Of a stretch of 64,000 nucleotides of DNA, positions 663 to 58,247 are shown piece by piece. A program made the position numbers and the translations under genes. The DNA is from a virus (taxonomy: Duplodnaviria; Heunggongvirae; Uroviricota; Caudoviricetes): the IMG/VR virus record IMGVR_UViG_3300002026_000057; one strand, written 5' to 3'. How positions within the stretch are numbered: position 1 is the first letter of the stretch; each line of letters opens with the position of its first letter. The notes beneath the pieces were generated by a model. It was not told where the DNA came from. It was given only the letters and a program-made list of their open reading frames with translations, and ran no database searches.

Positions 663-1196
663 TTATTGGATAATTGTTCCTACATCAAACACGACGTAGT
701 TTCGAGCATTGGAGTCCCATTTATCTATGAATGTATTTCCAATATAACCTAATGATTTAAGGAATAATGACGCTTCCTTTTCACCACTTAATACAAATGA
801 TAGCCATTCATATACTTGTTTATTTGTGACATCACCATAATTCTCAGATTGTTCTATGTAATCAGATCTTAATTCTTCAATTGAGTCTTCATCAATTCCA
901 ACATTTTCCAATCCATTTAGGATTCGTCCCCCATCCTCACTTGCAGGGGAATCAAGGTCAAAGAAATTACCAGATCTAAGTTCGTACTCATTAACGAAAC
1001 CATTCGATGTGAAATATCTTTCTGACACTTCTCTACTATCAGAAAAATATATTCCCCACCCACCAAGAGATTTACCATCACCACTCCCAACTTTTGACAT
1101 GTCGAATGTATCGAATTTCCTGTCTGATCCATGCCACACATTTATACCTTCGGGAATTAATCTTCTTAATTGATCTTCTGTTACGATTATTTTCAT
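663..1196 (-). CDS. paralog A of the 'ITE-x-QL' N-terminal-motif family; HGS...GIYF core, possible ADP-ribosyltransferase-like fold
   Basis: N-terminus MKIIVTEDQLRRLI. WHGSD...GWGIYFSDSRE...Y core shared with 1201..1785 and 40257..41654. Tandem with paralog B. Confidence 0.6.
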   Translation of the reverse strand: MKIIVTEDQLRRLIPEGINVWHGSDRKFDTFDMSKVGSGDGKSLGGWGIYFSDSREVSERYFTSNGFVNEYELRSGNFFDLDSPASEDGGRILNGLENVGIDEDSIEELRSDYIEQSENYGDVTNKQVYEWLSFVLSGEKEASLFLKSLGYIGNTFIDKWDSNARNYVVFDVGTIIQ

Positions 1197-1200
1197 TGTT

Positions 1201-1785
1201 TTATACTATTTCAATGTTTGTTATCTCAATAATATTGGGGTTATAAACAATAATATGTTGTCTATCTTCTTTGTTTATTATTTGTCCATCATATCCTAAT
1301 TTAACCATTCCCCTTGCAAAAATAATTGGATTATATCTAAAGAAATCTATCCATACTTGTTGAAACAAATCTTTCTCAGTGTTATTATACTGCATAAAAG
1401 ATTGAATAGCAACATTAAGTCCCCTTTCAGGGTTTTCATCCCAATCTTGAGCATTAAGTTCCCATTCTGGAAGTTGTTTTATTATTTTCTTTAATTCTAT
1501 TGGCTTAATATTTTTGCTTGAAGTTTCATCCAATAATTTATTTGGTCTTAAAATAACGGAGTACAAAAATTTACCATAGTGTAGAGCCTCATTACGACTT
1601 GTTGTGAAATATATACCAGGTCCTTCCTGATCTGAAGCTTCTTGTGACCCCATAAATTCATCTGTGAATTTTTTAAAATCATGATCCGATCCGTGATATG
1701 CAATAATATTACCACCAATAACAGTTTCCTTAATGTTTCTTTTTAATTGATGAAGTTGAGCTTCTGTAATAATTATTTTCTTCAT
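1201..1785 (-). CDS. paralog B of the 'ITE-x-QL' family; YHGSD...GIYFTTSRNEALHYG core (ART-like, speculative)
   Basis: N-terminus MKKIIITEAQLHQLKRNI. Core motif similar to 663..1196. Sits 4 bp downstream of paralog A. Confidence 0.6.
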   Translation of the reverse strand: MKKIIITEAQLHQLKRNIKETVIGGNIIAYHGSDHDFKKFTDEFMGSQEASDQEGPGIYFTTSRNEALHYGKFLYSVILRPNKLLDETSSKNIKPIELKKIIKQLPEWELNAQDWDENPERGLNVAIQSFMQYNNTEKDLFQQVWIDFFRYNPIIFARGMVKLGYDGQIINKEDRQHIIVYNPNIIEITNIEIV

Positions 1786-8780: not shown

Positions 8781-8805
8781 TATAATAGGTATTTAATTTT
8801 TATTG

Positions 8806-40256: not shown

Positions 40257-41654
40257 ATGAGAGTTATTATCACCGAAAATCAATTAAAAAATGTTATTAA
40301 CCGTACTATTCTAAATGAAACTTCCGGTGAATTAGAAAAGTATTATGTTAAAACTGGTATTTTTGATGATGAAGACCGAAATGTTATAATGAATATCACT
40401 AACGGCGATAATTTCACAAAACTTATCGCCGATATGTACTATTATTTTGCCGGTAAGTACAACAAAGAATTGGTTGAACCAAGAAGATTATCTGCGAGAG
40501 ATATTGAAATTCTCGAAAATACACATAGAAGACTAAAAGAATATAACAAAAATGTTATACCTATTCATGATCTATATGCAAAAGAACATAACGCTCATCC
40601 GTTAGAAAAAATGAATGATTTAGATTGGAGAGAACGAATCATTGAAAGAATAAAACAATTACCGAGTTTATTAGTTCGTAATTTAAGGGGTGATATTAGA
40701 AAAGAAAGAACCCATTATGAATTGGAAGGGTTGTTTCATACAATAAAAGAAATACAAAATTCCTTAAAGTTAGTTGGACAAACTAAACCTGAACATCGTG
40801 AAAAAATTGAGAAGAAAATATTTTCGAGCGCCAACGACACTTTCGATGGGGTTAAAAAAAGACTTGAAGATACAACTATTCCATATTTGTCACAAGATGA
40901 TGCATCTGAAGGTATTGTCGAAAAAGTTAGAGATATAGGTGATGAAGCAGAAATATTATACAACCAAGACAATATTTTAGTTGTAAAAATTAATAGTGCA
41001 GAGGCGATGGGGTATATCGGTTGTAGTTCTCAATGGTGTTTTGCTTCAAATCCACAACAATATTGGGACAATTATACTGGCGAAGGTGGATTTGCTACCA
41101 TAGTTTTTAATTTCAATGAAGAGCCAAGTGAACCAACCGCAATGGTTGTTGTATTGGAAGATGGTAATGTATATAATATGTATAATGATTTTATGGAGGA
41201 TGGGGAGGAGTATTTAATAGATATAGGCGTACATAACATAATCCAAAGAGGTGAAATGGAATTATCCGAAAGCTTTGATATTGAAAAACAAATCGATGGG
41301 TTTATTTACCATGGAACAGGAAAAGGACAGGCTTTAAACATACAAAAAGATGGGTTTATGAAACCTAACAGAACAGGTGAAGAACATCCATCAATTTCAT
41401 TTACTAAAAGTTTTAACTATTCAAAATATTATGCAACCGTTAAAGGTGGATCAAACAAAATGGTTATATTGAGAACCAAATTAACAAACGATTTTATATT
41501 GTCTCCAAAGATATTAAATAATAAAGGAGACGAATATGTTACATTTAAAAAAGTTTCTACAAACGATTTAGAAATACTGTGTCCCGATAATAAATGGAGA
41601 CCATTAAATGAATGGGATGTTATATTTGATGAACCTAAAATTAACTTAAATTAA
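40257..41654 (+). CDS. paralog C of the 'ITE-x-QL' family (465 aa) with C-terminal YHGTG...ISFT ART-like core
   Basis: N-terminus MRVIITENQLKNVINRTILNE. C-terminus FIYHGTGKGQALN...HPSISFTKSFNYSKYYAT parallels the HGS...GIYF cores at 663..1785. Confidence 0.6.
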   Translation: MRVIITENQLKNVINRTILNETSGELEKYYVKTGIFDDEDRNVIMNITNGDNFTKLIADMYYYFAGKYNKELVEPRRLSARDIEILENTHRRLKEYNKNVIPIHDLYAKEHNAHPLEKMNDLDWRERIIERIKQLPSLLVRNLRGDIRKERTHYELEGLFHTIKEIQNSLKLVGQTKPEHREKIEKKIFSSANDTFDGVKKRLEDTTIPYLSQDDASEGIVEKVRDIGDEAEILYNQDNILVVKINSAEAMGYIGCSSQWCFASNPQQYWDNYTGEGGFATIVFNFNEEPSEPTAMVVVLEDGNVYNMYNDFMEDGEEYLIDIGVHNIIQRGEMELSESFDIEKQIDGFIYHGTGKGQALNIQKDGFMKPNRTGEEHPSISFTKSFNYSKYYATVKGGSNKMVILRTKLTNDFILSPKILNNKGDEYVTFKKVSTNDLEILCPDNKWRPLNEWDVIFDEPKINLN

Positions 41655-41886: not shown

Positions 41887-41935
41887 CCCGATTCGAAAGA
41901 TTCGGGATTTTTTTTTGTTCTTTGATGTATTGGAA
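41887..41935 (+). terminator. rho-independent terminator ATCCCGATTC-GAAA-GATTCGGGAT plus T9, followed by the repeated tail GTTCTTTGAYRTATTGG
   Basis: 9/10-bp stem with a GNRA loop and a T-run. The same tail is found after the terminator at 42872. Confidence 0.65.
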
Positions 41936-41942
41936 TAACATA

Positions 41943-42016
41943 TACGCTCGAAGCTCAAGTGGACGGGCTTCTGGCTTTTAACCAGAAGGTTGTGGGTTCG
42001 AGGCCCACCGGGCGTA
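41943..42016 (+). tRNA. tRNA-Lys (anticodon TTT), canonical length but apparent 8-nt T-loop
   Basis: Acceptor ACGCTCG/CGGGCGT, D-stem GCTC/GGGC, anticodon stem TCTGG/CCAGA, loop CTTTTAA, T-arm GTGGG-TTCGAAGG-CCCAC. Confidence 0.5.
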
Positions 42017-42022
42017 CAAAAT

Positions 42023-42112
42023 GACTCTGTGGCAGAGATAGGCGTGATGCACCAGACTTTTAATCTGGGATCCCCATAAAGGTGTACGTGGGTTCGATTC
42101 CCACCGGGGTCA
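42023..42112 (+). tRNA. tRNA-like, 90 nt, anticodon loop CTTTTAA (UUU) with ~19-nt variable region; identity uncertain
   Basis: Acceptor GACTCTG/CGGGGTC (with G-U pairs), T-arm GTGGG-TTCGATT-CCCAC, discriminator A, anticodon stem CCAGA/TCTGG. Confidence 0.4.
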
Positions 42113-42169
42113 CTTGAGAGTAGAGTTTAGGTATTTTCTGTATCTTGTTTGAACTGAAATATCCAAATC

Positions 42170-42238
42170 GCCGACAATCCAGGGAGACGACGGCTCTGTA
42201 AAAGCCTAGCGCGAAGGTTCAAGATCCTTCTGGCGGCA
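42170..42238 (+). tRNA. degenerate tRNA-like element (acceptor GCCGACA/TGGCGGC, loop CTGTAAA, 8-nt T-loop); possible pseudogene
   Basis: 6/7 acceptor pairing, T-stem GAAGG/CCTTC, but no convincing D-arm. Confidence 0.25.
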
Positions 42239-42303
42239 CATAGGTATCGGTTTTAGGGTTTTTTACTACTTTTTTGGTCCAATGTCCCGAAAAAAAGTAG
42301 AAT

Positions 42304-42386
42304 GGAAAGGTGGTCGAGTGGTTAATGGCACCAGACTGTAAATTTGGTCTCTTCGGAGTTCGGGGGTTCGAATCCCTCCCTTTCCA
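42304..42386 (+). tRNA. tRNA-Tyr (GTA), type II
   Basis: Acceptor GGAAAGG/CCTTTCC, 3-bp D-stem, anticodon stem CCAGA/TTTGG, loop CTGTAAA, variable hairpin CTC-TTCG-GAG, T-loop TTCGAAT, discriminator A. Confidence 0.7.
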
Positions 42387-42393
42387 CAACAAT

Positions 42394-42466
42394 GCATCCG
42401 TAGCTCAATTGGCGGAGCTCGTGACTCTTACTCATGAGGTTGGGGGTTCGATTCCCTTCGGATGCA
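42394..42466 (+). tRNA. tRNA-Lys (CTT)
   Basis: Acceptor GCATCCG/CGGATGC, D-arm GCTC-AATTGGCG-GAGC, anticodon loop CTCTTAC, T-loop TTCGATT. Confidence 0.65.
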
Positions 42467-42472
42467 CAAATC

Positions 42473-42555
42473 ACCATCGTAGTAAAGTGGCCAAATACGC
42501 TTCTCTCATAAGGAAGTCCTTTTTAGGTTCGAGGGTTCGAATCCCTCCGATGGTA
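42473..42555 (+). tRNA. tRNA with anticodon CAT (Met or Ile2) carrying a long variable hairpin (CCT-TTTT-AGG)
   Basis: Acceptor ACCATCG/CGATGGT, anticodon stem CTTCT/GGAAG, loop CTCATAA, T-arm GAGGG-TTCGAAT-CCCTC, discriminator A. Confidence 0.55.
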
Positions 42556-42643
42556 CAAAATGGTGATTATCACCATAATAGAAAAAAGTTTTAAAAAACT
42601 TAAAAAAAAGTTTAAAAAAACTTGGTTATTCCAATACGATTAT

Positions 42644-42669
42644 TTATATTTGTACCATATTTATAATAA
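42644..42669 (+). promoter_or_regulatory. promoter copy B: the same TTATATTTGTACCATATTTATAATAA 27-mer
   Basis: Identical to the 41694-41720 element. Confidence 0.5.
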
Positions 42670-42688
42670 AGATTAAACGCTGAAACAA

Positions 42689-42838
42689 ATGAAAAACATA
42701 ATTGCAATAATTTCAAGGACACAAATATCGTCCCCATCAACGACAAGTAGTCGTAATGGAAATGGTATATTCTGTTCAGACTTTACAGGCAGAAATATTG
42801 CAGACACGGGTTCAGGTGGAAAGGTTGTTTTAAGATAA
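42689..42838 (+). CDS. small ORF B (49 aa, MKNIIAIISRTQISSPSTTSSRNGNG...) between promoter copy B and a terminator
   Basis: Hand-translated. Flanked by the promoter at 42644 and the terminator at 42872. Confidence 0.25.
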   Translation: MKNIIAIISRTQISSPSTTSSRNGNGIFCSDFTGRNIADTGSGGKVVLR

Positions 42839-42871
42839 ACTTTTCCGAAACACACAAACTGAACCCGACAT

Positions 42872-42919
42872 CTGAATAGATAGTCGGGTTTTTTGTTCTT
42901 TGACATATTGGTATTTTGA
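42872..42919 (+). terminator. rho-independent terminator CCCGAC-N13-GTCGGG plus T6, followed by GTTCTTTGACATATTGG
   Basis: Hairpin plus T-run. The tail is shared with the terminator at 41887. Confidence 0.6.
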
Positions 42920-42999
42920 TGAAGTGGCTGAGTGGTTGAAAGCGACAGTCTGCAAAACTGTTTACGAAAGTACTCGTGGGTTCGAATCCCACCTTCATC
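42917..42999 (+). tRNA. tRNA with anticodon GCA (Cys identity, U73) but a type-II-like long variable hairpin (TAC-GAAA-GTA)
   Basis: Acceptor GATGAAG/CTTCATC, 3-bp D-stem GCT/AGC, anticodon stem ACAGT/ACTGT, loop CTGCAAA, T-arm GTGGG-TTCGAAT-CCCAC, discriminator T. Confidence 0.55.
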
Positions 43000-43077
43000 T
43001 CCATTTGGAACGTTCTGTCATTGCTATATCGGGACAGAACACCTCCATAGGGTTGCATGGTTTCCTATGGACCACCT

Positions 43078-43166
43078 GGGTGAGTAGCTGAATTGGCTTA
43101 GCGGGAGGCTGTTAACCTCTGATTGAAAATATTGAAATAAAGTGGGTTCGAAGCCCTCCTTGCCCT
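43078..43166 (+). tRNA. tRNA-Asn (GTT)-like with a 21-nt AT-rich insertion at the variable-loop position
   Basis: Acceptor GGGTGAG/CTTGCCC (with G-U pairs), anticodon stem GGAGG/CCTCT, loop CTGTTAA, insert GATTGAAAATATTGAAATAAA, T-loop TTCGAAG. Confidence 0.45.
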
Positions 43167-43229
43167 CAAATTATAGTTTTGTTTAACTATACTTATAGTT
43201 GATTAATAGAGAATATTTTCAACTGATAT

Positions 43230-43303
43230 TGTCTTGTAGTTCAGCCAGGAAGAACGTTCGGCAGATACCCGAAAGGTCGTTGGTTCAAACCCAATCAAGA
43301 CAA
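43230..43303 (+). tRNA. tRNA, probable Ile (GAT), anticodon loop CAGATAC (A at position 33)
   Basis: Acceptor TGTCTTG/CAAGACA, D-arm GTTC-AGCCAGGAA-GAAC, anticodon stem TTCGG/CCGAA, T-arm GTTGG-TTCAAAC-CCAAT. Confidence 0.5.
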
Positions 43304-43373
43304 CGAGAGAGACCCTTTTTTCTGATTTTTTTTAAAGGACACTTCGGTGGAAGCGTAGAAAAAAGTCTGATAC

Positions 43374-43455
43374 TGTGACGTGGATGAGCGGTTTAGTCAC
43401 CAGTCTGATACACTGGGTGCTTAGCACGACGTGAGTTCGAATCTCACCGTCACAA
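43374..43455 (+). tRNA. tRNA-Ile (GAT) with a 14-nt variable hairpin (GTGC-TTA-GCAC)
   Basis: Acceptor TGTGACG/CGTCACA, anticodon stem CCAGT/ACTGG, loop CTGATAC, T-arm GTGAG-TTCGAAT-CTCAC, discriminator A. Confidence 0.55.
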
Positions 43456-43575
43456 CAAAAGGTTAGTAATCTAGACGCCTAACCAGCTGAAAAGATGAAG
43501 TTTCCTTGGCGAAATTGATCCAAACTGGCACCTGTGGTGGGATGAGAAGTGGTGATAAAGTGACCAAAAACTATA

Positions 43576-43663
43576 AGGAAGAGTGTCCGAGTGGCTTATG
43601 GAGGCGGTCTTGAAAACCGTTGTCCCTGCAAGGGGACCGTGGGTTCGAATCCTACCTCTTCCG
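43576..43663 (+). tRNA. tRNA-Ser (TGA), type II
   Basis: Acceptor GGAAGAG/CTCTTCC, loop CTTGAAA, variable hairpin GTCCC-TGCAA-GGGAC, discriminator G. Confidence 0.7.
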
Positions 43664-43735
43664 CAAAAGGGTAGCTGTTTTTTAGAATTTTTTTATCGAA
43701 CTGAGTAAAGGTATTCGGAAACAAAAAATTCGTTT

Positions 43736-43820
43736 GGAGAGGTGGCAGAGTGGTCTAATGCGGCAGTCTTGAAAACTGTTGGGCTTTCGGGCTCCGGGGG
43801 TTCGAATCCCTCCCTCTCCG
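43736..43820 (+). tRNA. tRNA-Ser (TGA), second copy, type II
   Basis: Acceptor GGAGAGG/CCTCTCC, loop CTTGAAA, variable arm GGGCTTTCGGGCTC, discriminator G. Confidence 0.65.
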
Positions 43821-43934
43821 CAACTGAAAACTATTGGATTGTCTAAGTTTTTTAGTGGCGGAAGTTTAAAGGACAATAAACCGCCCCGGAAAGGTATATA
43901 AAACAGTGAACTTGTTCATTGATTCCGGGAATTT

Positions 43935-44023
43935 GGAAGAATGGGTGAGTGGTTTAAACCAGCGGCTTGCTAAGCCGTCGGGCGGGGTAACCCGCCCCAA
44001 GAGTTCGAATCTCTTTTCTTCCG
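43935..44023 (+). tRNA. tRNA-Ser (GCT), type II
   Basis: Acceptor GGAAGAA/TTCTTCC, loop TTGCTAA, variable hairpin CGGGCGGGG-TAA-CCCGCCCC, T-arm AAGAG-TTCGAAT-CTCTT, discriminator G. Confidence 0.7.
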
Positions 44024-44097
44024 CCATATTTAAAGAAATTTCATTAAAAGTCGCCTGTTTCAGAAACCGATGAGTATTTATAAATAAATAAACATTT

Positions 44098-44517
44098 ATG
44101 AATACAAATGAAAAGGGTAATAGAGGATTGGCAAATGTAATATCTGACGTAATTAATAAGGGGTATTTTATATTTTTACCACTTACGGACACAACAAATA
44201 TTGATATTATAATTGCAAATGAAAAAATGGAAATGTTCAGAGCTCAAGTAAAATATAGTTCTGTTAATAAACATGGAGTTATTAAAGCATCTACATCAAA
44301 TGTTGTTGATAGAAAAAGAGTTTCTGTAAATTTTTCGGTTATTGATTTGTGGGCAATTTATTGTCCTGACACAAGTAAAGTATACTATGTACCAAAAAAA
44401 GAATTGGTAAATAAGTCATCTGGAATGGAATTACGTGTTAATAAACCGAAATTGAATAATCCAAACATACATTTTGCAAATGATTATTTGGATATAAAAA
44501 ATGCGTTGATAAAGTAA
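44098..44517 (+). CDS. hypothetical protein (139 aa) embedded in the tRNA array
   Basis: ORF on the same strand as the tRNAs. No motif identified. Confidence 0.45.
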   Translation: MNTNEKGNRGLANVISDVINKGYFIFLPLTDTTNIDIIIANEKMEMFRAQVKYSSVNKHGVIKASTSNVVDRKRVSVNFSVIDLWAIYCPDTSKVYYVPKKELVNKSSGMELRVNKPKLNNPNIHFANDYLDIKNALIK

Positions 44518-44752
44518 TCAGCCAAATTGGATTATCATTAGCTGATTTCACACGTCAAAACAATGGTCATGACATTGTGGAGATGTTAGGGTTCTGAATT
44601 GCATAAGAGGCTCTATTAATGTTCAGCTGGAAAACTTCCCTGTGTTTGTGTATAGGCAGCACAATAAATACGGGGATATTCTGAGAGACATTTTTAAGGT
44701 GGTTGAAATATCATCGGTAGTGTGAGTATAAGGCTCACTTCAGAACCAAATT

Positions 44753-44825
44753 GGTGTCGTAGCTCAGTTGGTAGAGCGCGGGCCTGAAGAGCCCGGCGTC
44801 GGTGGTTCGAATCCACCCGATACCA
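44753..44825 (+). tRNA. tRNA-Phe (GAA)
   Basis: GGTGTCGTAGCTCAGTTGGTAGAGCGCGGGCCTGAAGAGCCCGGCGTCGGTGGTTCGAATCCACCCGATACCA; clean cloverleaf. Confidence 0.8.
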
Positions 44826-44831
44826 CAATAT

Positions 44832-44905
44832 TCTTGTGTAGCTCAGTTGGTTAGAGCGGCGGACTGTTAATCCGTAGGTCGAAGGTTCAAGTCCTTCCTC
44901 AAGAG
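44832..44905 (+). tRNA. tRNA-Asn (GTT), canonical
   Basis: D-arm GCTC-AGTTGGTTA-GAGC, anticodon stem GCGGA/TCCGT, loop CTGTTAA, T-arm GAAGG-TTCAAGT-CCTTC, discriminator G. Confidence 0.7.
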
Positions 44906-44999
44906 CAATACTGGTTTTTGATCCCGCTTTACCGTTAGGATGCTCAGGCTGAACAGAATACAAAGGAGGAATGACAGGTGTGGAGAGACACACAAATAC

Positions 45000-45071
45000 G
45001 GATTGGTAGCTCAGGGGTAGAGCGCTGGCCTGAAGAGCCAGAGGTCGAAGGGTCAACTCCTTCTCATTCCA
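45000..45071 (+). tRNA. tRNA-Phe (GAA)-like second copy with a divergent T-loop (GTCAACT) and an acceptor mismatch
   Basis: D-arm GCTC-AGGGGTA-GAGC, anticodon stem CTGGC/GCCAG, loop CTGAAGA, T-stem GAAGG/CCTTC. Confidence 0.45.
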
Positions 45072-45273
45072 CAAATGTGGGTTGTCCACCAGTAGAGGTG
45101 GGTACGTAAGTCTGTTATACACGGCAGAGTCCACGCCAAATATCGGGGATGATACACTGTTTTATCACAGTGCCCCGTCCAAAAAAGGACAAGTGAATGG
45201 ATCAATCCCTGTTTCCGCAGGGGGAGATTACCGTCTAGAGTACGGACATTTACATCGGAATTGTCCTTTACTT

Positions 45274-45361
45274 GCAGTAGTCGCCTAGTTGATCGATGGC
45301 ACTGGATTTCCAATCCAGTCAGATAAAGTTCACGTCGAGGGTTTGAATCCCTCCTACTGCT
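45274..45361 (+). tRNA. tRNA-Gly (TCC)-like with an 18-nt variable-region insertion
   Basis: Acceptor GCAGTAG/CTACTGC (7/7), 3-bp D-stem GCC/GGC, anticodon stem CTGGA/TCCAG, loop TTTCCAA, T-arm GAGGG-TTTGAAT-CCCTC, discriminator T. Confidence 0.5.
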
Positions 45362-45720
45362 CTTTTAAGATATCTGGAAATACAGGTTCGAATCCTGTAC
45401 CGCTCCTTCGGGGGAGGTTCGTCTAAGGGATAGGACGCCGGAGCACACGGTCTCCTTTGCTTAGGAATATCGAAGCGGCTACATCTCAATATTAGCTATA
45501 AAAGATGTAGAATGGGTGAAAGTCCCAAGGAGATCAGACTTTCGTGGTCGTGGGTTCGAGCCCCACCGCTACCGTCGGTAGTGTAAGTCTCAGTTGGTAG
45601 AGCTGCGAACCATAAATGTTATTTCTTAGGAACACCAATCACGATGGGTTCGAAACCGTAGTGAAGGTACATTAGAAAGTGTTCTAGCGGGAATAACAAT
45701 GCCTCGGATAATAATAGTAC
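45362..45720 (+). other. cluster of tRNA-like fragments: isolated T-arms, hairpins, and a 3' half (T-arm plus CGCTACC-G) directly abutting a 5' half (GGTAGTG-TA-D-arm) with mutually complementary acceptor strands
   Basis: T-arms ACAGG-TTCGAAT-CCTGT (45381-45398) and GTGGG-TTCGAGC-CCCAC (45556-45572). 3' acceptor CGCTACC at 45573-45579, then TC, then GGTAGTG plus a D-arm-like TCTC-AGTTGGTA-GAGC. GCGAA at 45613 can pair with TTCGT at 45547. Confidence 0.3.
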
Positions 45721-45736
45721 TTAAAAATTCCGGGGT

Positions 45737-45810
45737 CGCGATGTAGCTCAGTTTGGTTAGAGCGCCGCTGCACAAGGCGGAGGTCAGAGGTTCGAATCCT
45801 CTCATCGCAA
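45737..45810 (+). tRNA. tRNA-like with C1.A72 mismatch (initiator-like) and a non-7-nt anticodon loop (CCGC-TGCACAAG-GCGG)
   Basis: Acceptor CGCGATG/CATCGCA, D-arm GCTC-AGTTTGGTTA-GAGC, T-arm AGAGG-TTCGAAT-CCTCT, discriminator A. Anticodon loop is 8 nt (or 6 with a U.G pair). Confidence 0.4.
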
Positions 45811-45815
45811 CTATA

Positions 45816-45900
45816 TGCGAGGTCGACTGGAGTTGGTTCCAGCGGGGGCTCATAACCCCTAACCCTTACGGGAACACAGGTTCGAATCCTGTCCTCGCTA
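45816..45900 (+). tRNA. tRNA with anticodon CAT and a 15-nt variable hairpin (CCC-TTAC-GGG)
   Basis: Anticodon stem GGGGG/CCCCT, loop CTCATAA, D-arm CTGG-AGTTGGTT-CCAG, T-arm ACAGG-TTCGAAT-CCTGT, acceptor GCGAGG/CCTCGC. Confidence 0.5.
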
Positions 45901-45922
45901 CTAATATTTTTTTTAAAATACA

Positions 45923-46009
45923 TGCGGGGTGGTGTAATTGGTTAACACGCTGGGCTCATAACCCAGAGACATCTAATGCTTCGTGTCAGTTCGAATCTGA
46001 CCCCCGCTA
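45923..46009 (+). tRNA. tRNA with anticodon CAT and an 18-nt variable-region insertion; U1.U72 mismatch
   Basis: Acceptor TGCGGGG/CCCCGCT, D-arm GTGT-AATTGGTTA-ACAC, anticodon stem CTGGG/CCCAG, loop CTCATAA, T-arm GTCAG-TTCGAAT-CTGAC. Confidence 0.5.
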
Positions 46010-46014
46010 CAATT

Positions 46015-46087
46015 GCCTATTTAGCTCAGTTGGTGGAGCGTATCCTTGGTATGGATAAGGTCATGGGTTCGAATCCCGTACTAGGCT
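46015..46087 (+). tRNA. tRNA-Thr (GGT)
   Basis: Acceptor GCCTATT/ACTAGGC, D-arm GCTC-AGTTGGTG-GAGC, anticodon stem TATCC/GGATA, loop TTGGTAT, T-arm ATGGG-TTCGAAT-CCCGT. Confidence 0.65.
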
Positions 46088-46131
46088 CATTCTCGTTTTT
46101 CATATATTTATGGATATAAAAAATTAAAACT

Positions 46132-46374
46132 ATGTTCAAAAAATTATGGGAAAATATTAAGGCATGGTGGATTAAAACCGCCGAACCTTGGTTAAAGAAA
46201 AGTTGGATGCAAATTGTAAATATCATTGTAATGTTCATTGCATATGGTACAACCGATTCACTTCCATGGGTACAAGCAATTGTAGGATTGTGGTTGTTCC
46301 TTCTTTTGGGATATTATATTTTCTGGAAACTCTTTGGAGCGGAAAAAATGTTCAAAAAGGATATCACAACGTAA
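46132..46374 (+). CDS. small 2-TM membrane protein (80 aa) inside the tRNA array
   Basis: Trp-rich hydrophobic helices. Followed by a strong terminator. Confidence 0.45.
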   Translation: MFKKLWENIKAWWIKTAEPWLKKSWMQIVNIIVMFIAYGTTDSLPWVQAIVGLWLFLLLGYYIFWKLFGAEKMFKKDITT

Positions 46375-46398
46375 AACAATTATTTTTACAGTATGGGT

Positions 46399-46430
46399 AA
46401 ACCCCAATTATACTGTAATTGGGGTTTTTT
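46399..46430 (+). terminator. rho-independent terminator ACCCCAATTA-TACTG-TAATTGGGGT plus T6
   Basis: 10-bp stem plus T-run right after the 46132..46374 ORF. Confidence 0.7.
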
Positions 46431-46433
46431 ATT

Positions 46434-46518
46434 GCCGATGTGGCATCAGCGGTCGACTGCGCCTGACTTGTAATCAGGATCTTAAACGGCAACGGGGGTT
46501 CGAATCCCTCCATCGGCT
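46434..46518 (+). tRNA. tRNA-Thr (TGT) with ~15-nt variable-region expansion
   Basis: Acceptor GCCGATG/CATCGGC, 3-bp D-stem, anticodon stem CCTGA/TCAGG, loop CTTGTAA, T-arm GGGGG-TTCGAAT-CCCTC, discriminator T. Confidence 0.5.
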
Positions 46519-46592
46519 CCATCCCTTCGGGGATCCCCGGCTTTTGGTGCTGGTAACACCTTGTAACCGATAACAATTAAAAACTACCAAAT

Positions 46593-46667
46593 GCGATAGT
46601 AGCTCAGTTGGTTCAGAGCGGGACCTTGCCAAGGTCCAGGTCGTGGGTTCGAGCCCCATTTATCGCT
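46593..46667 (+). tRNA. tRNA-Gly (GCC)
   Basis: Acceptor GCGATAG/TTATCGC, D-arm GCTC-AGTTGGTTCA-GAGC, anticodon stem GGACC/GGTCC, loop TTGCCAA, T-loop TTCGAGC, discriminator T. Confidence 0.7.
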
Positions 46668-46672
46668 CAATT

Positions 46673-46745
46673 GCGAAAGTAGCTCATTTGGTAGAGCATC
46701 AGCCTTCCAAGCTGAGGGTGGCGAGTTCAAGCCTCGTCTTTCGCT
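46673..46745 (+). tRNA. tRNA-Gly (TCC), canonical
   Basis: Acceptor GCGAAAG/CTTTCGC, D-arm GCTC-ATTTGGTA-GAGC, anticodon stem TCAGC/GCTGA, loop CTTCCAA, T-arm GCGAG-TTCAAGC-CTCGT. Confidence 0.7.
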
Positions 46746-46974
46746 CCAAGTATTCTTCATAACTCAGAGGATTCATCGCGCCAGAAATGGTGAGGAACTT
46801 CAGGACATCACTGCCAAATGCGGGAGGGTTAAAACCCGTTATCACCGCAGAGGATGCAACCCAAAAAAGCTTAGACGGCAAGCAGGTCTATAATAGTAAG
46901 GTTGGGGCTTAGACAAATGATGAAACAAAACAGAAACCTGGGTACGCTCAAGTTATGATTTATTTTGATTAATA

Positions 46975-47048
46975 GGATCATTAGCTTAATTGGTAAAAGC
47001 AGAACACTCATAATGTTAAGAGTAACGGTTCGATCCCGTTATGATCCA
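46975..47048 (+). tRNA. tRNA with anticodon CAT (Met/Ile2), canonical length
   Basis: Acceptor GGATCAT/ATGATCC, D-arm GCTT-AATTGGTA-AAGC, anticodon stem GAACA/TGTTA, loop CTCATAA, T-arm AACGG-TTCGATC-CCGTT, discriminator A. Confidence 0.6.
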
Positions 47049-47478
47049 CAAATAAATAATATTTAATATTGTAATAAAGGTCTTGGATCCTTCAAAGATA
47101 ATATTGAATATCTCACGAATGCTATAAAATATTTAAAATAAAAATATCTCATACAACCATATCCCGAAACTATTTATATATGTAGTTTCATAAAATTCTA
47201 AATTAATAAAAATGAAAGATTGTGAACCGTATAAACAGAAACAAAACAGCAACATTGTTCCTTTTCTTAGGAACATTTTTCAATCCTTTAGGATACGATG
47301 CTCTCCTAAAATTCTTAATCGATACGACAGGCAGTTATTGGTTTTCAATTTCCATTTTCTACCTATTGTCAGTAGTTTGCTTTATCTCTTACTTTGTTTT
47401 AGCTAAAGTAAACCCATTAAAACTCTTTACAAGAAAAAGAGATTTATCTTAGGATATTAATTTCTTTTTCTTTATATT

Positions 47479-47553
47479 TGCACCCGTAGCTTAATTGGAT
47501 AAGCATCACTCTTCTAAAGTGAAGTCATATGAGTTCGAGCCTCATGGGGTGTT
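47479..47553 (+). tRNA. tRNA-Arg (TCT)
   Basis: Acceptor GCACCCG/GGGGTGT (one mismatch), D-arm GCTT-AATTGGATA-AGC, anticodon stem TCACT/AGTGA, loop CTTCTAA, T-arm ATGAG-TTCGAGC-CTCAT. Confidence 0.55.
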
Positions 47554-47710: not shown

Positions 47711-47849
47711 AAATAATAAATGGATTTCAGTAAATGGATATGCATTTATTGATAATTGGGGACATTGTATAATAATTGTTTATGGCGAAGGTCGTAGAGA
47801 TGCACTTAATCAACATTTAATAAAAACGCTCCCATATTTCAACGGATAG
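47661..47849 (+). CDS. hypothetical protein (62 aa); partly overlaps the zinc-ribbon ORF, so the true start is uncertain
   Basis: ORF track. Its C-terminal codons (…YFNG*) coincide with repeat copy 1 of the tRNA-3'-like element. Confidence 0.3.
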   Translation: MIFTIQKMNHVLKYQDENNKWISVNGYAFIDNWGHCIIIVYGEGRRDALNQHLIKTLPYFNG

Positions 47850-47893
47850 AATTAGAATTTCCTAAATTTTAGATACAGGTTCGATTCCTGTTG
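47830..47893 (+). repeat. tRNA-3'-half-like repeat, copy 1 (TTCAACGGATAGAA...TTTTAGATACAGGTTCGATTCCTGTTGGGAG)
   Basis: T-arm-like ACAGG-TTCGATT-CCTGT with no matching 5' half. ~80% identical to the 48308-48365 copy. The two copies flank the GNAT gene. Confidence 0.5.
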
Positions 47894-47913
47894 GGAGTAC
47901 AAAAAATATTAGT

Positions 47914-48294
47914 ATGGTAAGAATTTTAAATAAAAAAGACAACAAGCAATTAAGTGAATTAATAAAAATTGCACTTTTTGAAAACGTTTTTATTGTAAAA
48001 AAGAAAAATCATCATTTTTTTGGCTATTTTATCGATGATAAATTAGTTGGTGTTGTTGGATATTTTACAATGAAAAAATATAAAACCATTGGTTTTATTA
48101 ACGCATTTGTTTTACCTGAATACAGAAAATCTGGTATTTATAAAAAACTTACTGAAGAAAGGTTTAATTTTTGTGTTGAAAATTATAAAGGATTTAAAAT
48201 TTTTATATCCGTAAATAGTAAAAGTAGACCACAAATAGAAAAATTAGGTTTTAAATTAATTGAAGAACAATATAGAATGTGTTTAAGTATTTAA
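47914..48294 (+). CDS. GNAT-family N-acetyltransferase
   Basis: Motif A region VGVVGYF...INAFVLPEYRKSGIYKKL. 126 aa. Confidence 0.6.
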   Translation: MVRILNKKDNKQLSELIKIALFENVFIVKKKNHHFFGYFIDDKLVGVVGYFTMKKYKTIGFINAFVLPEYRKSGIYKKLTEERFNFCVENYKGFKIFISVNSKSRPQIEKLGFKLIEEQYRMCLSI

Positions 48295-57185: not shown

Positions 57186-58247
57186 TTAATTATCATCTCC
57201 TTCACTATCATTTATAGTGAATGGTTTAGAATATTTTGGGTATATTTTTGCCCAAATCATCTGACTAATATCTTTCCCATCTGCCAAATTGAAAAATACC
57301 CCACGGAGACTTTTATCATATGTAAAAATTTTCTCAGCAAGTTCTTTTCTGGTTTTATAACCCTGACACTCAATTTCAGAAGTGTAAGTGTATTTCATCT
57401 TACCTTCAATAGACTGAAACAATTTAGTCATAGTATCAATTTGGTCATGTACCCAAGAGTCGAACTCATCAGGAACGTGTTCCAATAATTGATCTATTGG
57501 TAAACCATCTTTAAGATATGTCCAAATATCTCTACTTGAAATCTTAGTGACGATAGAATGTAAACGACAATATTCTTCGCCTTTTATTTTCATTCTGAAC
57601 CCAGACTTGAATCGAATAACATACCCTTCAGCATCTGGTTTAATGCTCGATTTAATTGTTTCAAAATCGGTCACTCCGTCATATTTTTGTACAACGGTAC
57701 AACCTAAATCTTCAAATCCAACGTTATGTACTGGTAATTCAATTCCCGAAACTATTTCTATGCGTCCTAAAAGAACTAAACCTTCAAAATCATATTTACA
57801 TACAATTCTACCTTCTTTGAAAATAATTTCAAAAATGTAGGTATAATCCTTTGCAAATTTTTCATATTCGAAAGCTTTAAGCAATTGTTTAGCTCGTTCT
57901 GCATACATAGAAGTGAAGGATCCTCGTGAAGCGAAAATCCATTCATCTTCGTACCAGAATAACAATCCCAACTGACCATCCATTTTTTCGAATAAATCGA
58001 ATGGTTCATCAGGAATTGGATAGTTTACGTTTAACAATTGTTCCCAATTGAAAAACTTGTTGAAGCACCGTGAAACAATATCACCTTTTGAGTTTGTTAC
58101 CAAACCACGGCACATCAAAGTGATTTCATCCCAATGGTCTTCCCATTGAGTCTGACGAGAATAGTTCCAAATAGTCAAATCCTTGTATGGGTGTGACTGT
58201 TTGATTAACCAACCTTCGTCATAATATTTGTTTAATACTTCTAACAT
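57186..58247 (-). CDS. ATP-dependent RNA/DNA ligase (nucleotidyltransferase superfamily, Rnl-like)
   Basis: Motif I FEKMDGQLG (KxDG), motif V-like EGYVIRFKSGFRMKIKGEEY. Confidence 0.6.
   Translation of the reverse strand: MLEVLNKYYDEGWLIKQSHPYKDLTIWNYSRQTQWEDHWDEITLMCRGLVTNSKGDIVSRCFNKFFNWEQLLNVNYPIPDEPFDLFEKMDGQLGLLFWYEDEWIFASRGSFTSMYAERAKQLLKAFEYEKFAKDYTYIFEIIFKEGRIVCKYDFEGLVLLGRIEIVSGIELPVHNVGFEDLGCTVVQKYDGVTDFETIKSSIKPDAEGYVIRFKSGFRMKIKGEEYCRLHSIVTKISSRDIWTYLKDGLPIDQLLEHVPDEFDSWVHDQIDTMTKLFQSIEGKMKYTYTSEIECQGYKTRKELAEKIFTYDKSLRGVFFNLADGKDISQMIWAKIYPKYSKPFTINDSEGDDN

Follow-up and report, generated by a model that had tools for sequence, protein, structure and literature searches.

The window analysed here is a 64,000-nucleotide (nt) stretch of viral DNA (IMG/VR virus record IMGVR_UViG_3300002026_000057; Caudoviricetes) with an array of tRNA genes, several of which have an enlarged variable region on an amino-acid identity that normally goes with a short one. 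The DNA is that of a large phage encoding a Dda-like helicase, an ATP-dependent DNA ligase and an Rnl1-like RNA ligase. tRNA genes were called with ARAGORN and scored independently with the Rfam model RF00005 (gathering threshold 29 bits). The array comprises 26 tRNA genes, all on the plus strand between positions 41944 and 47900, and 25 of them score above the threshold. Likewise, 25 of the 26 lie within the segment 41943-47553, which had been the subject of an earlier note made by hand-folding; Arg-CCU (47828-47900) lies just beyond it. In bacteria the long variable arm is reserved for Ser, Leu, Tyr and selenocysteine (Sec) tRNAs (class II), and the split between short-loop and long-arm tRNAs is very constant in translation. 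The array contains four ordinary long-arm tRNAs (Tyr-GUA and three Ser), 13 tRNAs of ordinary length, and nine long tRNAs with short-loop (type I) identities (Table 1).

By ARAGORN segmentation, from which all variable-region lengths in this work are taken, the nine long tRNAs measure 83-91 nt and have variable regions of 13-21 nt. All nine had been located in the earlier note, and ARAGORN calls each within 1 nt; the "14-21 extra nucleotides" given there, however, correspond to 13-21 nt in total, or roughly 8-16 nt beyond the usual 4-5. Eight of the nine match RF00005 with 40.6-64.5 bits over model positions 1-71, the CAU tRNA at 45816-45901 falling below threshold. Infernal alignments of four array tRNAs, three of them long, leave every arm intact and place the extra bases in one variable-loop insert. 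The acceptor and T stems have the 7/5 layout in all nine (ARAGORN, Infernal), and the 8-nt T-loops previously described for two tRNAs are seen with neither program. The variable region exceeds 10 nt, the length that marks class II, in 9/9, and it forms a stem-loop in four of the nine and in 71 of 86 long tRNAs of the wider clade (see below). The anticodons (UUU, CAU, GCA, GUU, GAU, UCC and UGU) fall outside the Ser/Leu/Tyr set of anticodons and identity elements. Three hairpins recognized by hand (TAC-GAAA-GTA, GTGC-TTA-GCAC and CCC-TTAC-GGG) are present, as is an AT-rich unstructured insert (GATTGAAAATATTGAAATAAA), and the discriminators U73 with GCA and A73 with CAU and UUU were read correctly. 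Ordinary 72-77-nt folds or pseudogenes, which had been named as grounds for abandoning these observations, were looked for with ARAGORN and Rfam and did not occur. The long-armed genes are real tRNA genes.

Table 1. Positions of the tRNA genes and other features discussed in the text.
Feature	Position	Strand	Description
Two ART-PolyVal ADP-ribosyltransferase open reading frames (ORFs)	663-1785	-	
Peptide deformylase with SEC-C motif	9142-9717	-	
Motif TTGTTCTTTGAYRTATTGG, copy 1	41915-41933	+	10 nt before first tRNA, after terminator-like hairpin
tRNA-Lys(UUU), short twin	41944-42017	+	74 nt, 5 nt upstream of long Lys; ARAGORN
tRNA-Lys(UUU), long	42023-42113	+	91 nt, 19-nt variable region, A73; ARAGORN, Rfam 50.8 bits
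tRNA-Tyr(GUA), ordinary class II	42304-42387	+	84 nt; arm of 3 bp, tetraloop, 3-nt tail
tRNA(CAU), long	42473-42556	+	84 nt, A1-U72, hairpin CCT-TTTT-AGG with TTC tail; ARAGORN, Rfam 56.9 bits
Motif TTGTTCTTTGAYRTATTGG, copy 2	42893-42911	+	6 nt before long tRNA-Cys, after terminator-like hairpin
tRNA-Cys(GCA), long	42918-43003	+	86 nt, U73, hairpin TAC-GAAA-GTA, CCA encoded; ARAGORN, 64.5 bits
tRNA-Asn(GUU), long	43078-43167	+	90 nt, U73, 21-nt AT-rich unstructured variable region; ARAGORN, 40.6 bits
tRNA-Ile(GAU), short twin	43230-43304	+	75 nt, A33 not U33, anticodon loop CAGATAC; ARAGORN, Infernal
tRNA-Ile(GAU), long	43374-43456	+	83 nt, A73, 3-bp D stem, hairpin GTGC-TTA-GCAC with GAC tail; ARAGORN, 51.8 bits
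Three tRNA-Ser, ordinary class II	43577-43664, 43736-43821, 43935-44026	+	ARAGORN
PD-(D/E)XK endonuclease ORF	44098-44517	+	Inside array; PF11645, E 6.5e-21
tRNA-Asn(GUU), short twin	44832-44906	+	75 nt, G73; ARAGORN, Rfam 71.5 bits
tRNA-Gly(UCC), long	45274-45362	+	89 nt, U73, 17-nt unstructured A-rich variable region, T-loop TTTGAAT; Rfam 54.3 bits
Irregular tRNA	45737-45811	+	C1xA72 mismatch, 6-nt anticodon loop GCACAA; ARAGORN, Rfam 54.1 bits
tRNA(CAU), long, initiator-like	45816-45901	+	86 nt, T1.T72 mismatch, GGG/CCC adjoining loop, hairpin CCC-TTAC-GGG; ARAGORN
tRNA(CAU), long, initiator-like	45923-46010	+	88 nt, T1.T72 mismatch, 18-nt unstructured variable region; Rfam 59.8 bits
tRNA-Thr(UGU), long	46434-46521	+	88 nt, U73, 15-nt variable region, CCA encoded; ARAGORN, Rfam 51.6 bits
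tRNA-Gly(UCC), short twin	46673-46748	+	76 nt; ARAGORN, Rfam 65.6 bits
Candidate RNase P-like RNA	46759-46956	+	~200 nt, catalytic domain only; between Gly-UCC and CAU tRNA
tRNA(CAU), short	46975-47049	+	75 nt, G1-C72, elongator Met or Ile2-like; ARAGORN, Rfam 67 bits
Small GNAT acetyltransferase ORF	47914-48294	+	After last tRNA
Rnl1-like RNA ligase	57186-58247	-	PHROG 562, E 2e-62

The three long CAU tRNAs are not alike. The copies at 45816 and 45923 share initiator-like marks, namely the T1.T72 mismatch and three G-C pairs adjoining the loop, and the first of them also has a Sec-like D stem of 6 base pairs (bp) with a 4-nt loop; its only match is tRNA-Sec at 29.7 bits, below the gathering score. 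The copy at 42473 looks like an elongator Met or Ile2 tRNA. Canonical twins, noticed earlier for five of the expanded tRNAs, were recovered for Lys-UUU, Ile-GAU, Asn-GUU and Gly-UCC; a short CAU copy exists too, and its status as a twin is uncertain because 45816 and 45923 are initiator-like whereas 42473 and 46975 resemble elongator Met or Ile2. The variable region of the long Asn contains a tandem ATTGAAA, and its T stem has one mismatch. Directly before the two initiator-like tRNAs stands the irregular tRNA of Table 1, and similar short-loop tRNAs occur in relatives (L029/L087 and L041; loci of relatives are numbered with the prefix L).

A search with the DNA ligase returned 80 IMG/VR loci with 49-79% identity, on contigs of up to 365 kb. 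In the flanks of these loci, 27 of 169 tRNAs are at least 80 nt long and have non-Ser/Leu/Tyr anticodons. At most one tRNA lies near the ligase in the relatives whose ligase is most similar (66-79% identity; large contigs L004, L055 and L071 and most others), and synteny is therefore not conserved there. The long Ile-GAU pattern identified 13 more viral loci, 29 metagenome loci and, among the genomes of 185,579 bacterial and archaeal species, a single contig. An exact pattern for the long Cys gave no matches, and of three loci recovered with the Metallophos ORF, one had no tRNAs and the other two had the same array but no long tRNAs. Against 50,697 isolated-phage records, megablast with the array produced generic tRNA-Asn matches only and blastn with the long Ile produced no match. 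The bacterial contig (L128, CAZVHB010000014.1; 3.1 kb), binned in a Saccharibacteria metagenome-assembled genome, consists almost wholly of 13 tRNAs, five of which are long type I tRNAs: Trp (96 nt), Gln (92), His (89), Ile (85) and Asn (86). The contig probably stems from a phage and was assigned to a bacterial genome by a binning error.

The tRNAs of the related jumbo-phage contigs were pooled and de-duplicated, and a type I tRNA was counted as long-armed when its variable region was at least 12 nt. By this cut-off 86 of 351 distinct type-I-identity tRNAs are long-armed, or 58 of 305 with GAU, the search bait, excluded. Fourteen anticodons are represented: GAU, GUU, CAU, GUG, GCA, UCC, CCA, UGU, UUU, UAC, UUG, CCC, UAU and AGC. 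The lengths are bimodally distributed: they peak at 3-7 nt (248 variable regions), are scarce at 8-12 nt and peak again at 13-17 nt. Of the 86 long tRNAs, 38 are accompanied in their locus, which is often truncated, by a short copy that shares the anticodon, and in 30 of these 38 the copy is adjacent. Two control arrays gave 0/19 (T5) and 1/12 (a T4-like Aeromonas phage) long-armed type I tRNAs. These counts, together with orthologues in relatives for eight of the nine long tRNAs of the window, bear out the systematic family that had been suspected from the window alone.

The arm is conserved in the long Ile-GAU tRNA. A hairpin of at least 3 bp is found in all 28 distinct orthologues with 13 different stem sequences, and each of the first four stem positions shows three Watson-Crick pair types (counted in Python from ARAGORN segments and RNAfold, MAFFT having misaligned the variable arm of four Ile sequences). 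Three helices (acceptor, anticodon and T) were scored in 12 Ile sequences checked in detail; pairing in all three is 100%, compensatory changes occur, and every sequence has A73. Varied stems that are kept paired were also found in the long CAU family with an ACC... acceptor (n=5, including 42473; CCT/AGG, CCTA/TAGG, AGTC/GACT, GCT/AGC and GGCA/TGTC), in long Cys orthologues (TAC/GTA, TGC/GCA and TAGC/GCTA) and in several Asn lineages.

Orthologues of the window genes sit in close relatives at 84-93% DNA identity. One of these loci, L125, has the long Lys, CAU, Cys, Asn and Ile tRNAs in window order; its long Lys (88 nt) keeps the flanks GATCC...GGTGTAC and shows two compensatory anticodon-stem changes. 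Long Asn and Ile orthologues are present in L117, where the 21-nt Asn variable region is identical to that of the window and 9 of the 69 other positions differ, four of them forming two compensatory stem-pair changes. By our estimate, identity of this insert would arise by chance in about 5% of cases if positions were independent, and it is therefore no more than suggestive of constraint. Long Gly orthologues (L103, L104 and L111) have inserts with a common AGA..AAA..CAC motif, long Thr orthologues occur in L103, L100 and L134, with a hairpin ACC-GTAA-GGT in the L100 copy, and L100 also has a long initiator-like CAU tRNA similar to 45816-45901. No orthologue of the CAU tRNA at 45923 was found among the relatives searched. 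In L095, a 77-nt Cys tRNA has the same scaffold as the long Cys of the window without its hairpin. In different relatives, the Cys scaffold and the Thr scaffold each occur in a short and a long version, so that a lineage can acquire the arm or lose it. Arms are nevertheless kept, with compensatory changes, between phages whose DNA ligases are only ~50% identical, and orthologues retain the helices and identity bases that pseudogenes would lose (paired Ile helices; expected discriminators in 75 of 83). This pattern of substitutions indicates that the arm or variable region is under selection across diverged phages.

Arm geometry separates the long type I tRNAs from most class II tRNAs of the same phages. 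The variable region forms a hairpin in 71 of 86, with a stem of 3-5 bp and a 3' tail of 3-4 nt in 59 of the 71. Ser arms (hairpin in 46/46) have 4-7 bp and a 1-nt tail in 35 of 46; Leu arms (7/7) have 3-5 bp and a 2-nt tail in all seven; and Tyr arms (3/3) have 2-3 bp and a 3-nt tail in two of three. The long type I geometry is thus nearest to that of Tyr, and unlike that of Ser or Leu; the arm of the window tRNA-Tyr has the geometry found in the long type I tRNAs. A tetraloop closes 50 of the 71 hairpins, and in 31 of these it is GNRA. A 3-bp D stem, as in class II tRNAs, is found in most hairpin-bearing long tRNAs and in all Ile copies. In 77 of 86 the variable region ends in a pyrimidine, as it does in short tRNAs, which fits the usual 15-48 tertiary pair. 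In a comparison of tRNA cores, with weak scores, the nearest neighbour is a Ser, Leu or Tyr tRNA for only 9 of the 86, which rules out wholesale recent descent from these tRNAs, and the long Gly and long Thr are mutual nearest neighbours, a sign that these two may be related.

The identity elements also follow the anticodon. In 75 of 83 long tRNAs, compared with 145 of 152 short ones, the discriminator is the one expected in bacteria from the consensus for that anticodon, extending across the relatives a fit first noticed in the window: the base is A in the Ile, CAU, Lys and Val tRNAs, U in Cys and Gly, G in Gln, Trp and most Asn, and C in His. The other marks were read by eye from printed sequences: the long His tRNAs examined have the extra 5' G along with C73, and the long Gly and Thr have both G1-C72 and C2-G71. 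U35, a major element for tyrosyl-tRNA synthetase (TyrRS), is absent from all long type I tRNAs. Arm orientation and the discriminator are determinants for the seryl enzyme (SerRS) and for TyrRS also, and Mukai et al. cite them likewise; for the leucyl enzyme (LeuRS), A73 and the orientation of the arm are known determinants (PMC2377443). The discriminators, the 5' G and the geometry of the arm therefore speak for retention of cognate identity and not for conversion to Ser-, Leu- or Tyr-accepting tRNAs.

We consider it probable that the long tRNAs are genuine, selectively maintained phage genes, that is, class-II-shaped versions of tRNAs that normally have a short loop. The arm would then stay in the mature tRNA, each long tRNA would be charged by its cognate synthetase, and during infection the long tRNAs would read their normal codons beside the short copy with the same anticodon. 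The arm may mark or shield the phage copy from an enzyme docking on the variable-loop face, and this copy would be handled unlike host-type tRNAs; such an enzyme might belong to a host defence that targets tRNAs, or be a phage product directed at the tRNAs of the host. This role of the arm, by which an enzyme approaching that face would tell phage copies from host-type ones, is a tentative proposal, more doubtful than maintenance itself. We make it because phage tRNAs counter PrrC and retron-Eco7 (PMC11555353) and this phage carries an Rnl1-type ligase. The same article also cites the escape of T5 from PARIS via a tRNA-Lys variant, and predicted anticodon-loop changes in mycobacteriophage tRNAs.

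Several observations weigh against selectively maintained, shielding arms. No significant hairpin is seen in five of the window's nine long tRNAs (Lys, Asn, Gly, the CAU tRNA at 45923 and Thr). Their conserved unstructured inserts are not explained by a simple arm model, and suggest sequence-specific recognition instead of steric bulk. Some copies look weakened, with the T-stem mismatch in Asn, the TTTGAAT T-loop in Gly and the sub-threshold score of the CAU tRNA at 45816. The long Ile tRNAs do not have C4-G69 and C29-G41, which matter for the isoleucyl-tRNA synthetase of E. coli. In relatives such as L029 the long and short Ile twins share their anticodon loop (by eye), and the arm would thus give no escape from a nuclease whose sole requirement is the anticodon stem-loop; in the window, unlike L029, the short Ile twin has A33 in place of the near-universal U33. 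Finally, the T4-like Aeromonas phage Aes012 has an annotated 83-nt tRNA-Arg(CCU) (L126 19832-19914; JN377895.1 65796-65878) whose D arm is reduced and whose variable position holds the hairpin ATACG-AAA-CGTAT; single cases of long-armed type I tRNAs therefore occur outside the clade, in cultured phages.

A broader version, which we regard as unlikely, is a partly private phage tRNA system. Its arms, many of them closed by GNRA tetraloops and others conserved single strands, would be handles separating phage from host tRNAs. They could make the phage tRNAs immune to defences that cleave or modify tRNAs (or to a weapon of the phage against host tRNAs), or allow a dedicated maturation by the phage's RNase P-like RNA of the array, which has no specificity domain.

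The long copies could instead be non-translating decoys or regulators that soak up or misdirect host tRNA-targeting toxins or tRNA-binding enzymes, leaving decoding to the short twins. This is improbable in our view, and it draws on the twin arrangement itself, on the resemblance of the conserved unstructured inserts to binding sites (the Asn insert shared with L117 and the Gly motif), on the cluster of three odd initiator-like tRNAs at 45737-46010, and on the finding that some allo-tRNA-like species are charged yet unused in translation (PMC5389517). A decoy for an anticodon-loop nuclease, however, would need less than is kept: the discriminator rules, the pyrimidine at the last variable position and Rfam scores near those of the short tRNAs. 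In addition, 48 of the 86 long tRNAs are without a short twin in the same, often truncated, locus.

We find little room for recoding by mischarging, in which the class II shape would lead SerRS, LeuRS or TyrRS to charge the tRNAs whatever their anticodon and so place Ser, Leu or Tyr at codons for Ile, Asn, Met and other amino acids. The class II architecture with its Tyr-like geometry is what such recoding would call for, A73 on the Ile, CAU, Lys and Val tRNAs would suit LeuRS and TyrRS as well, the CAU tRNA at 45816 has a Sec/allo-like D arm, and in vitro, nematode nev-tRNAs accept Leu despite their Ile and Gly anticodons (PMC3333845, PMC4300185). Yet the discriminators track the anticodon by cognate rules, as does the 5' G of the long His, the tails differ from those of the Ser and Leu arms in the same phages, U35 is missing throughout, and few of the long tRNAs have class II tRNAs as nearest neighbours.

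Excision of the extra bases and rejoining of the halves into an ordinary tRNA of ~75 nt, which the earlier note had raised as possible processing, is very unlikely. The single fixed insert position and the Rnl1-like ligase encoded by the phage are compatible with it. There is, however, no bulge-helix-bulge and no conserved motif at the insert ends across orthologues, the insert sits in the variable loop and not at 37/38, and ARAGORN intron mode adds nothing; the stems are short (3-5 bp) and show the covariation of class II arms, most hairpin-bearing copies and all Ile copies have the 3-bp D stem that goes with an arm that is retained, and the pyrimidine of the last variable position is kept. 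No tRNA splicing endonuclease is known from bacteria. We likewise give very little weight to decay, whereby redundant copies would gain slippage insertions in a tolerant loop on the way to becoming pseudogenes: the tandem ATTGAAA and T-stem mismatch of the window Asn, the tRNA-like remnants in the spacers (orphan T-arm fragments and a sub-threshold stretch, described below) and the coming and going of the arm in Cys and Thr orthologues would fit, but arms persist with compensation across deeply diverged phages, the lengths are bimodal and not a tail, and even the "messy" Asn insert is identical in L117, so that decay is largely refuted for the Ile, Cys, CAU and Asn families.

The nearest published parallels differ from the long-armed phage tRNAs in identity or in structure. 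Allo-tRNAs (Mukai et al. 2017, PMC5389517) likewise combine a long arm with varied anticodons, but they are defined by an 8/4 or 9/3 acceptor/T-stem layout and a Ser identity with G73 or U73, and their arm is of the Ser type, whereas the phage tRNAs have the 7/5 layout, a Tyr-like arm and discriminators that match the anticodon. A73 is found in five of the nine long tRNAs in the window, and the 3-4-nt tail contrasts with the 1-nt tail of Ser tRNAs in these phages. A Sec-like D arm as in allo-tRNAs is present only in the CAU tRNA at 45816, compared with a long variable region in 9/9, and a 9/3 fold of this tRNA, checked by hand, needs two mismatches and loses a perfect 5-bp T stem. The nematode nev-tRNAs (PMC3333845, PMC4300185) are also class II tRNAs with Ile or Gly anticodons conserved within a lineage; they are, however, eukaryotic, limited to few anticodons and mischarged with Leu, whereas here a phage lineage has 14 anticodons, cognate-type discriminators and tails of a length that differs from that of its own Leu tRNAs. 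Bacterial class II tRNA-Tyr shares the 3-bp D stem, the 3-5-bp variable stem, the tetraloop and the 3-nt 3' tail and, with the long Ile, Met and Lys, A73; it differs in its GUA anticodon, and from the long tRNAs that have U, G or C73 where their anticodon requires it. Defence-countering phage tRNAs (PMC11555353) resemble the present case in occurring as arrays in large lytic phages and in supplying extra copies of tRNAs known to be targets of host attack (Lys, Tyr and others), but the published routes are more tRNA or an altered anticodon loop, and an added variable arm is not among them; evasion by such an arm in the window phage is a hypothesis. The long-armed phage tRNAs look like members of a wider set of non-canonical arm-bearing tRNAs, and the phage trait itself is apparently undescribed: no account of long-armed type I tRNAs in phages was found in the open-access literature searched, the coverage of which is incomplete.

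In this phage lineage, at least 14 other anticodon families have joined the long-arm class and are held there by selection, apparently without a change of amino-acid identity. If charged and used, the long tRNAs would be natural scaffolds that tolerate an added arm, with a bearing on the tolerance of synthetases, EF-Tu and the ribosome and on how orthogonal tRNAs are designed. Should the arm give protection from immune systems that target tRNAs, it would be a new route of counter-defence beside tRNA oversupply and anticodon-loop changes. The twin pairs offer a natural comparison of armed and unarmed tRNAs that share an anticodon.

A second, independent point of interest is an RNase P-like RNA in the array. 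It aligns end to end with the archaeal RNase P model RF00373 at 39.8 bits (gathering score 84; E 3.2e-10), with ~117 positions of the specificity domain replaced by ~28 nt, and contains the conserved catalytic-domain motifs (regions CR-I, CR-IV and CR-V), with the sequences GAGGAA..UC, GCUUAG.C.AAU and AACAGAA...G..UAC. Homologues in L084 (8474-8694), L095/L096 (L095 10816-11048) and L100 (7242-7496) score 29.9, 26.9 and 29.3 bits, and compensatory changes in P1, P3 and P4 were seen by eye in the alignment of the four. Further versions of 180-320 nt occur in other IMG/VR contigs (L129-L136), always within tRNA arrays. We regard the window RNA as a candidate phage-encoded RNase P RNA reduced to the catalytic domain; its scores lie below all Rfam RNase P thresholds. 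As described in PMC3579882, Type T RNase P RNA of Thermoproteaceae also measures ~200 nt and has the catalytic domain only, but it is archaeal, whereas the window RNA is phage-borne. No description of a phage-encoded RNase P RNA was found in the open-access literature searched (incomplete coverage). A link between this RNA and the long-armed tRNAs was considered and dropped, since L095 has the RNA and none of its 19 tRNAs is long.

The motif TTGTTCTTTGAYRTATTGG looks like a candidate phage promoter: it has two exact copies in the window against 0.12 expected by chance, and each heads a tRNA sub-cluster, the long Cys being the first tRNA of the second. The placement of the PD-(D/E)XK ORF resembles that of homing-type nucleases within the tRNA arrays of T5 and the Aeromonas control phage. 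DNA methylases, a peptide deformylase and ADP-ribosyltransferase domains are also encoded in the window; the deformylase, the ADP-ribosyltransferases and the Rnl1-like ligase have functions related to translation and RNA repair. The ORF upstream of the array (40257-41654) has no relatives in IMG/VR.

In the array spacers, ARAGORN in intron mode and with a relaxed threshold gave no extra credible tRNAs. Three orphan T-arm-like motifs lie in the spacers 45363-45736 and 42114-42303 (plus strand), for example ACAGGTTCGAATCCTGT at ~45384, and a tRNA-like stretch at 42170-42238 reaches a sub-threshold 23.4 bits. None of these is called by ARAGORN or Rfam; they could be remnants of tRNAs, half-tRNAs or small RNAs of another kind. 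In the spacer upstream of the long Gly-UCC, a 46-nt segment (45136-45181, plus strand) is 93% identical to L095/L096 5432-5477, where the surrounding spacer is unalignable, and may be another small conserved RNA element. Outside the array, a tRNA with the anticodon UUA, which would read the stop codon UAA, is located at 8805-8877 on the minus strand (Rfam 66.5 bits), and CUA (amber) suppressor-type tRNAs are found in L092/L116, L095/L096, L130, L132, L135 and L136.

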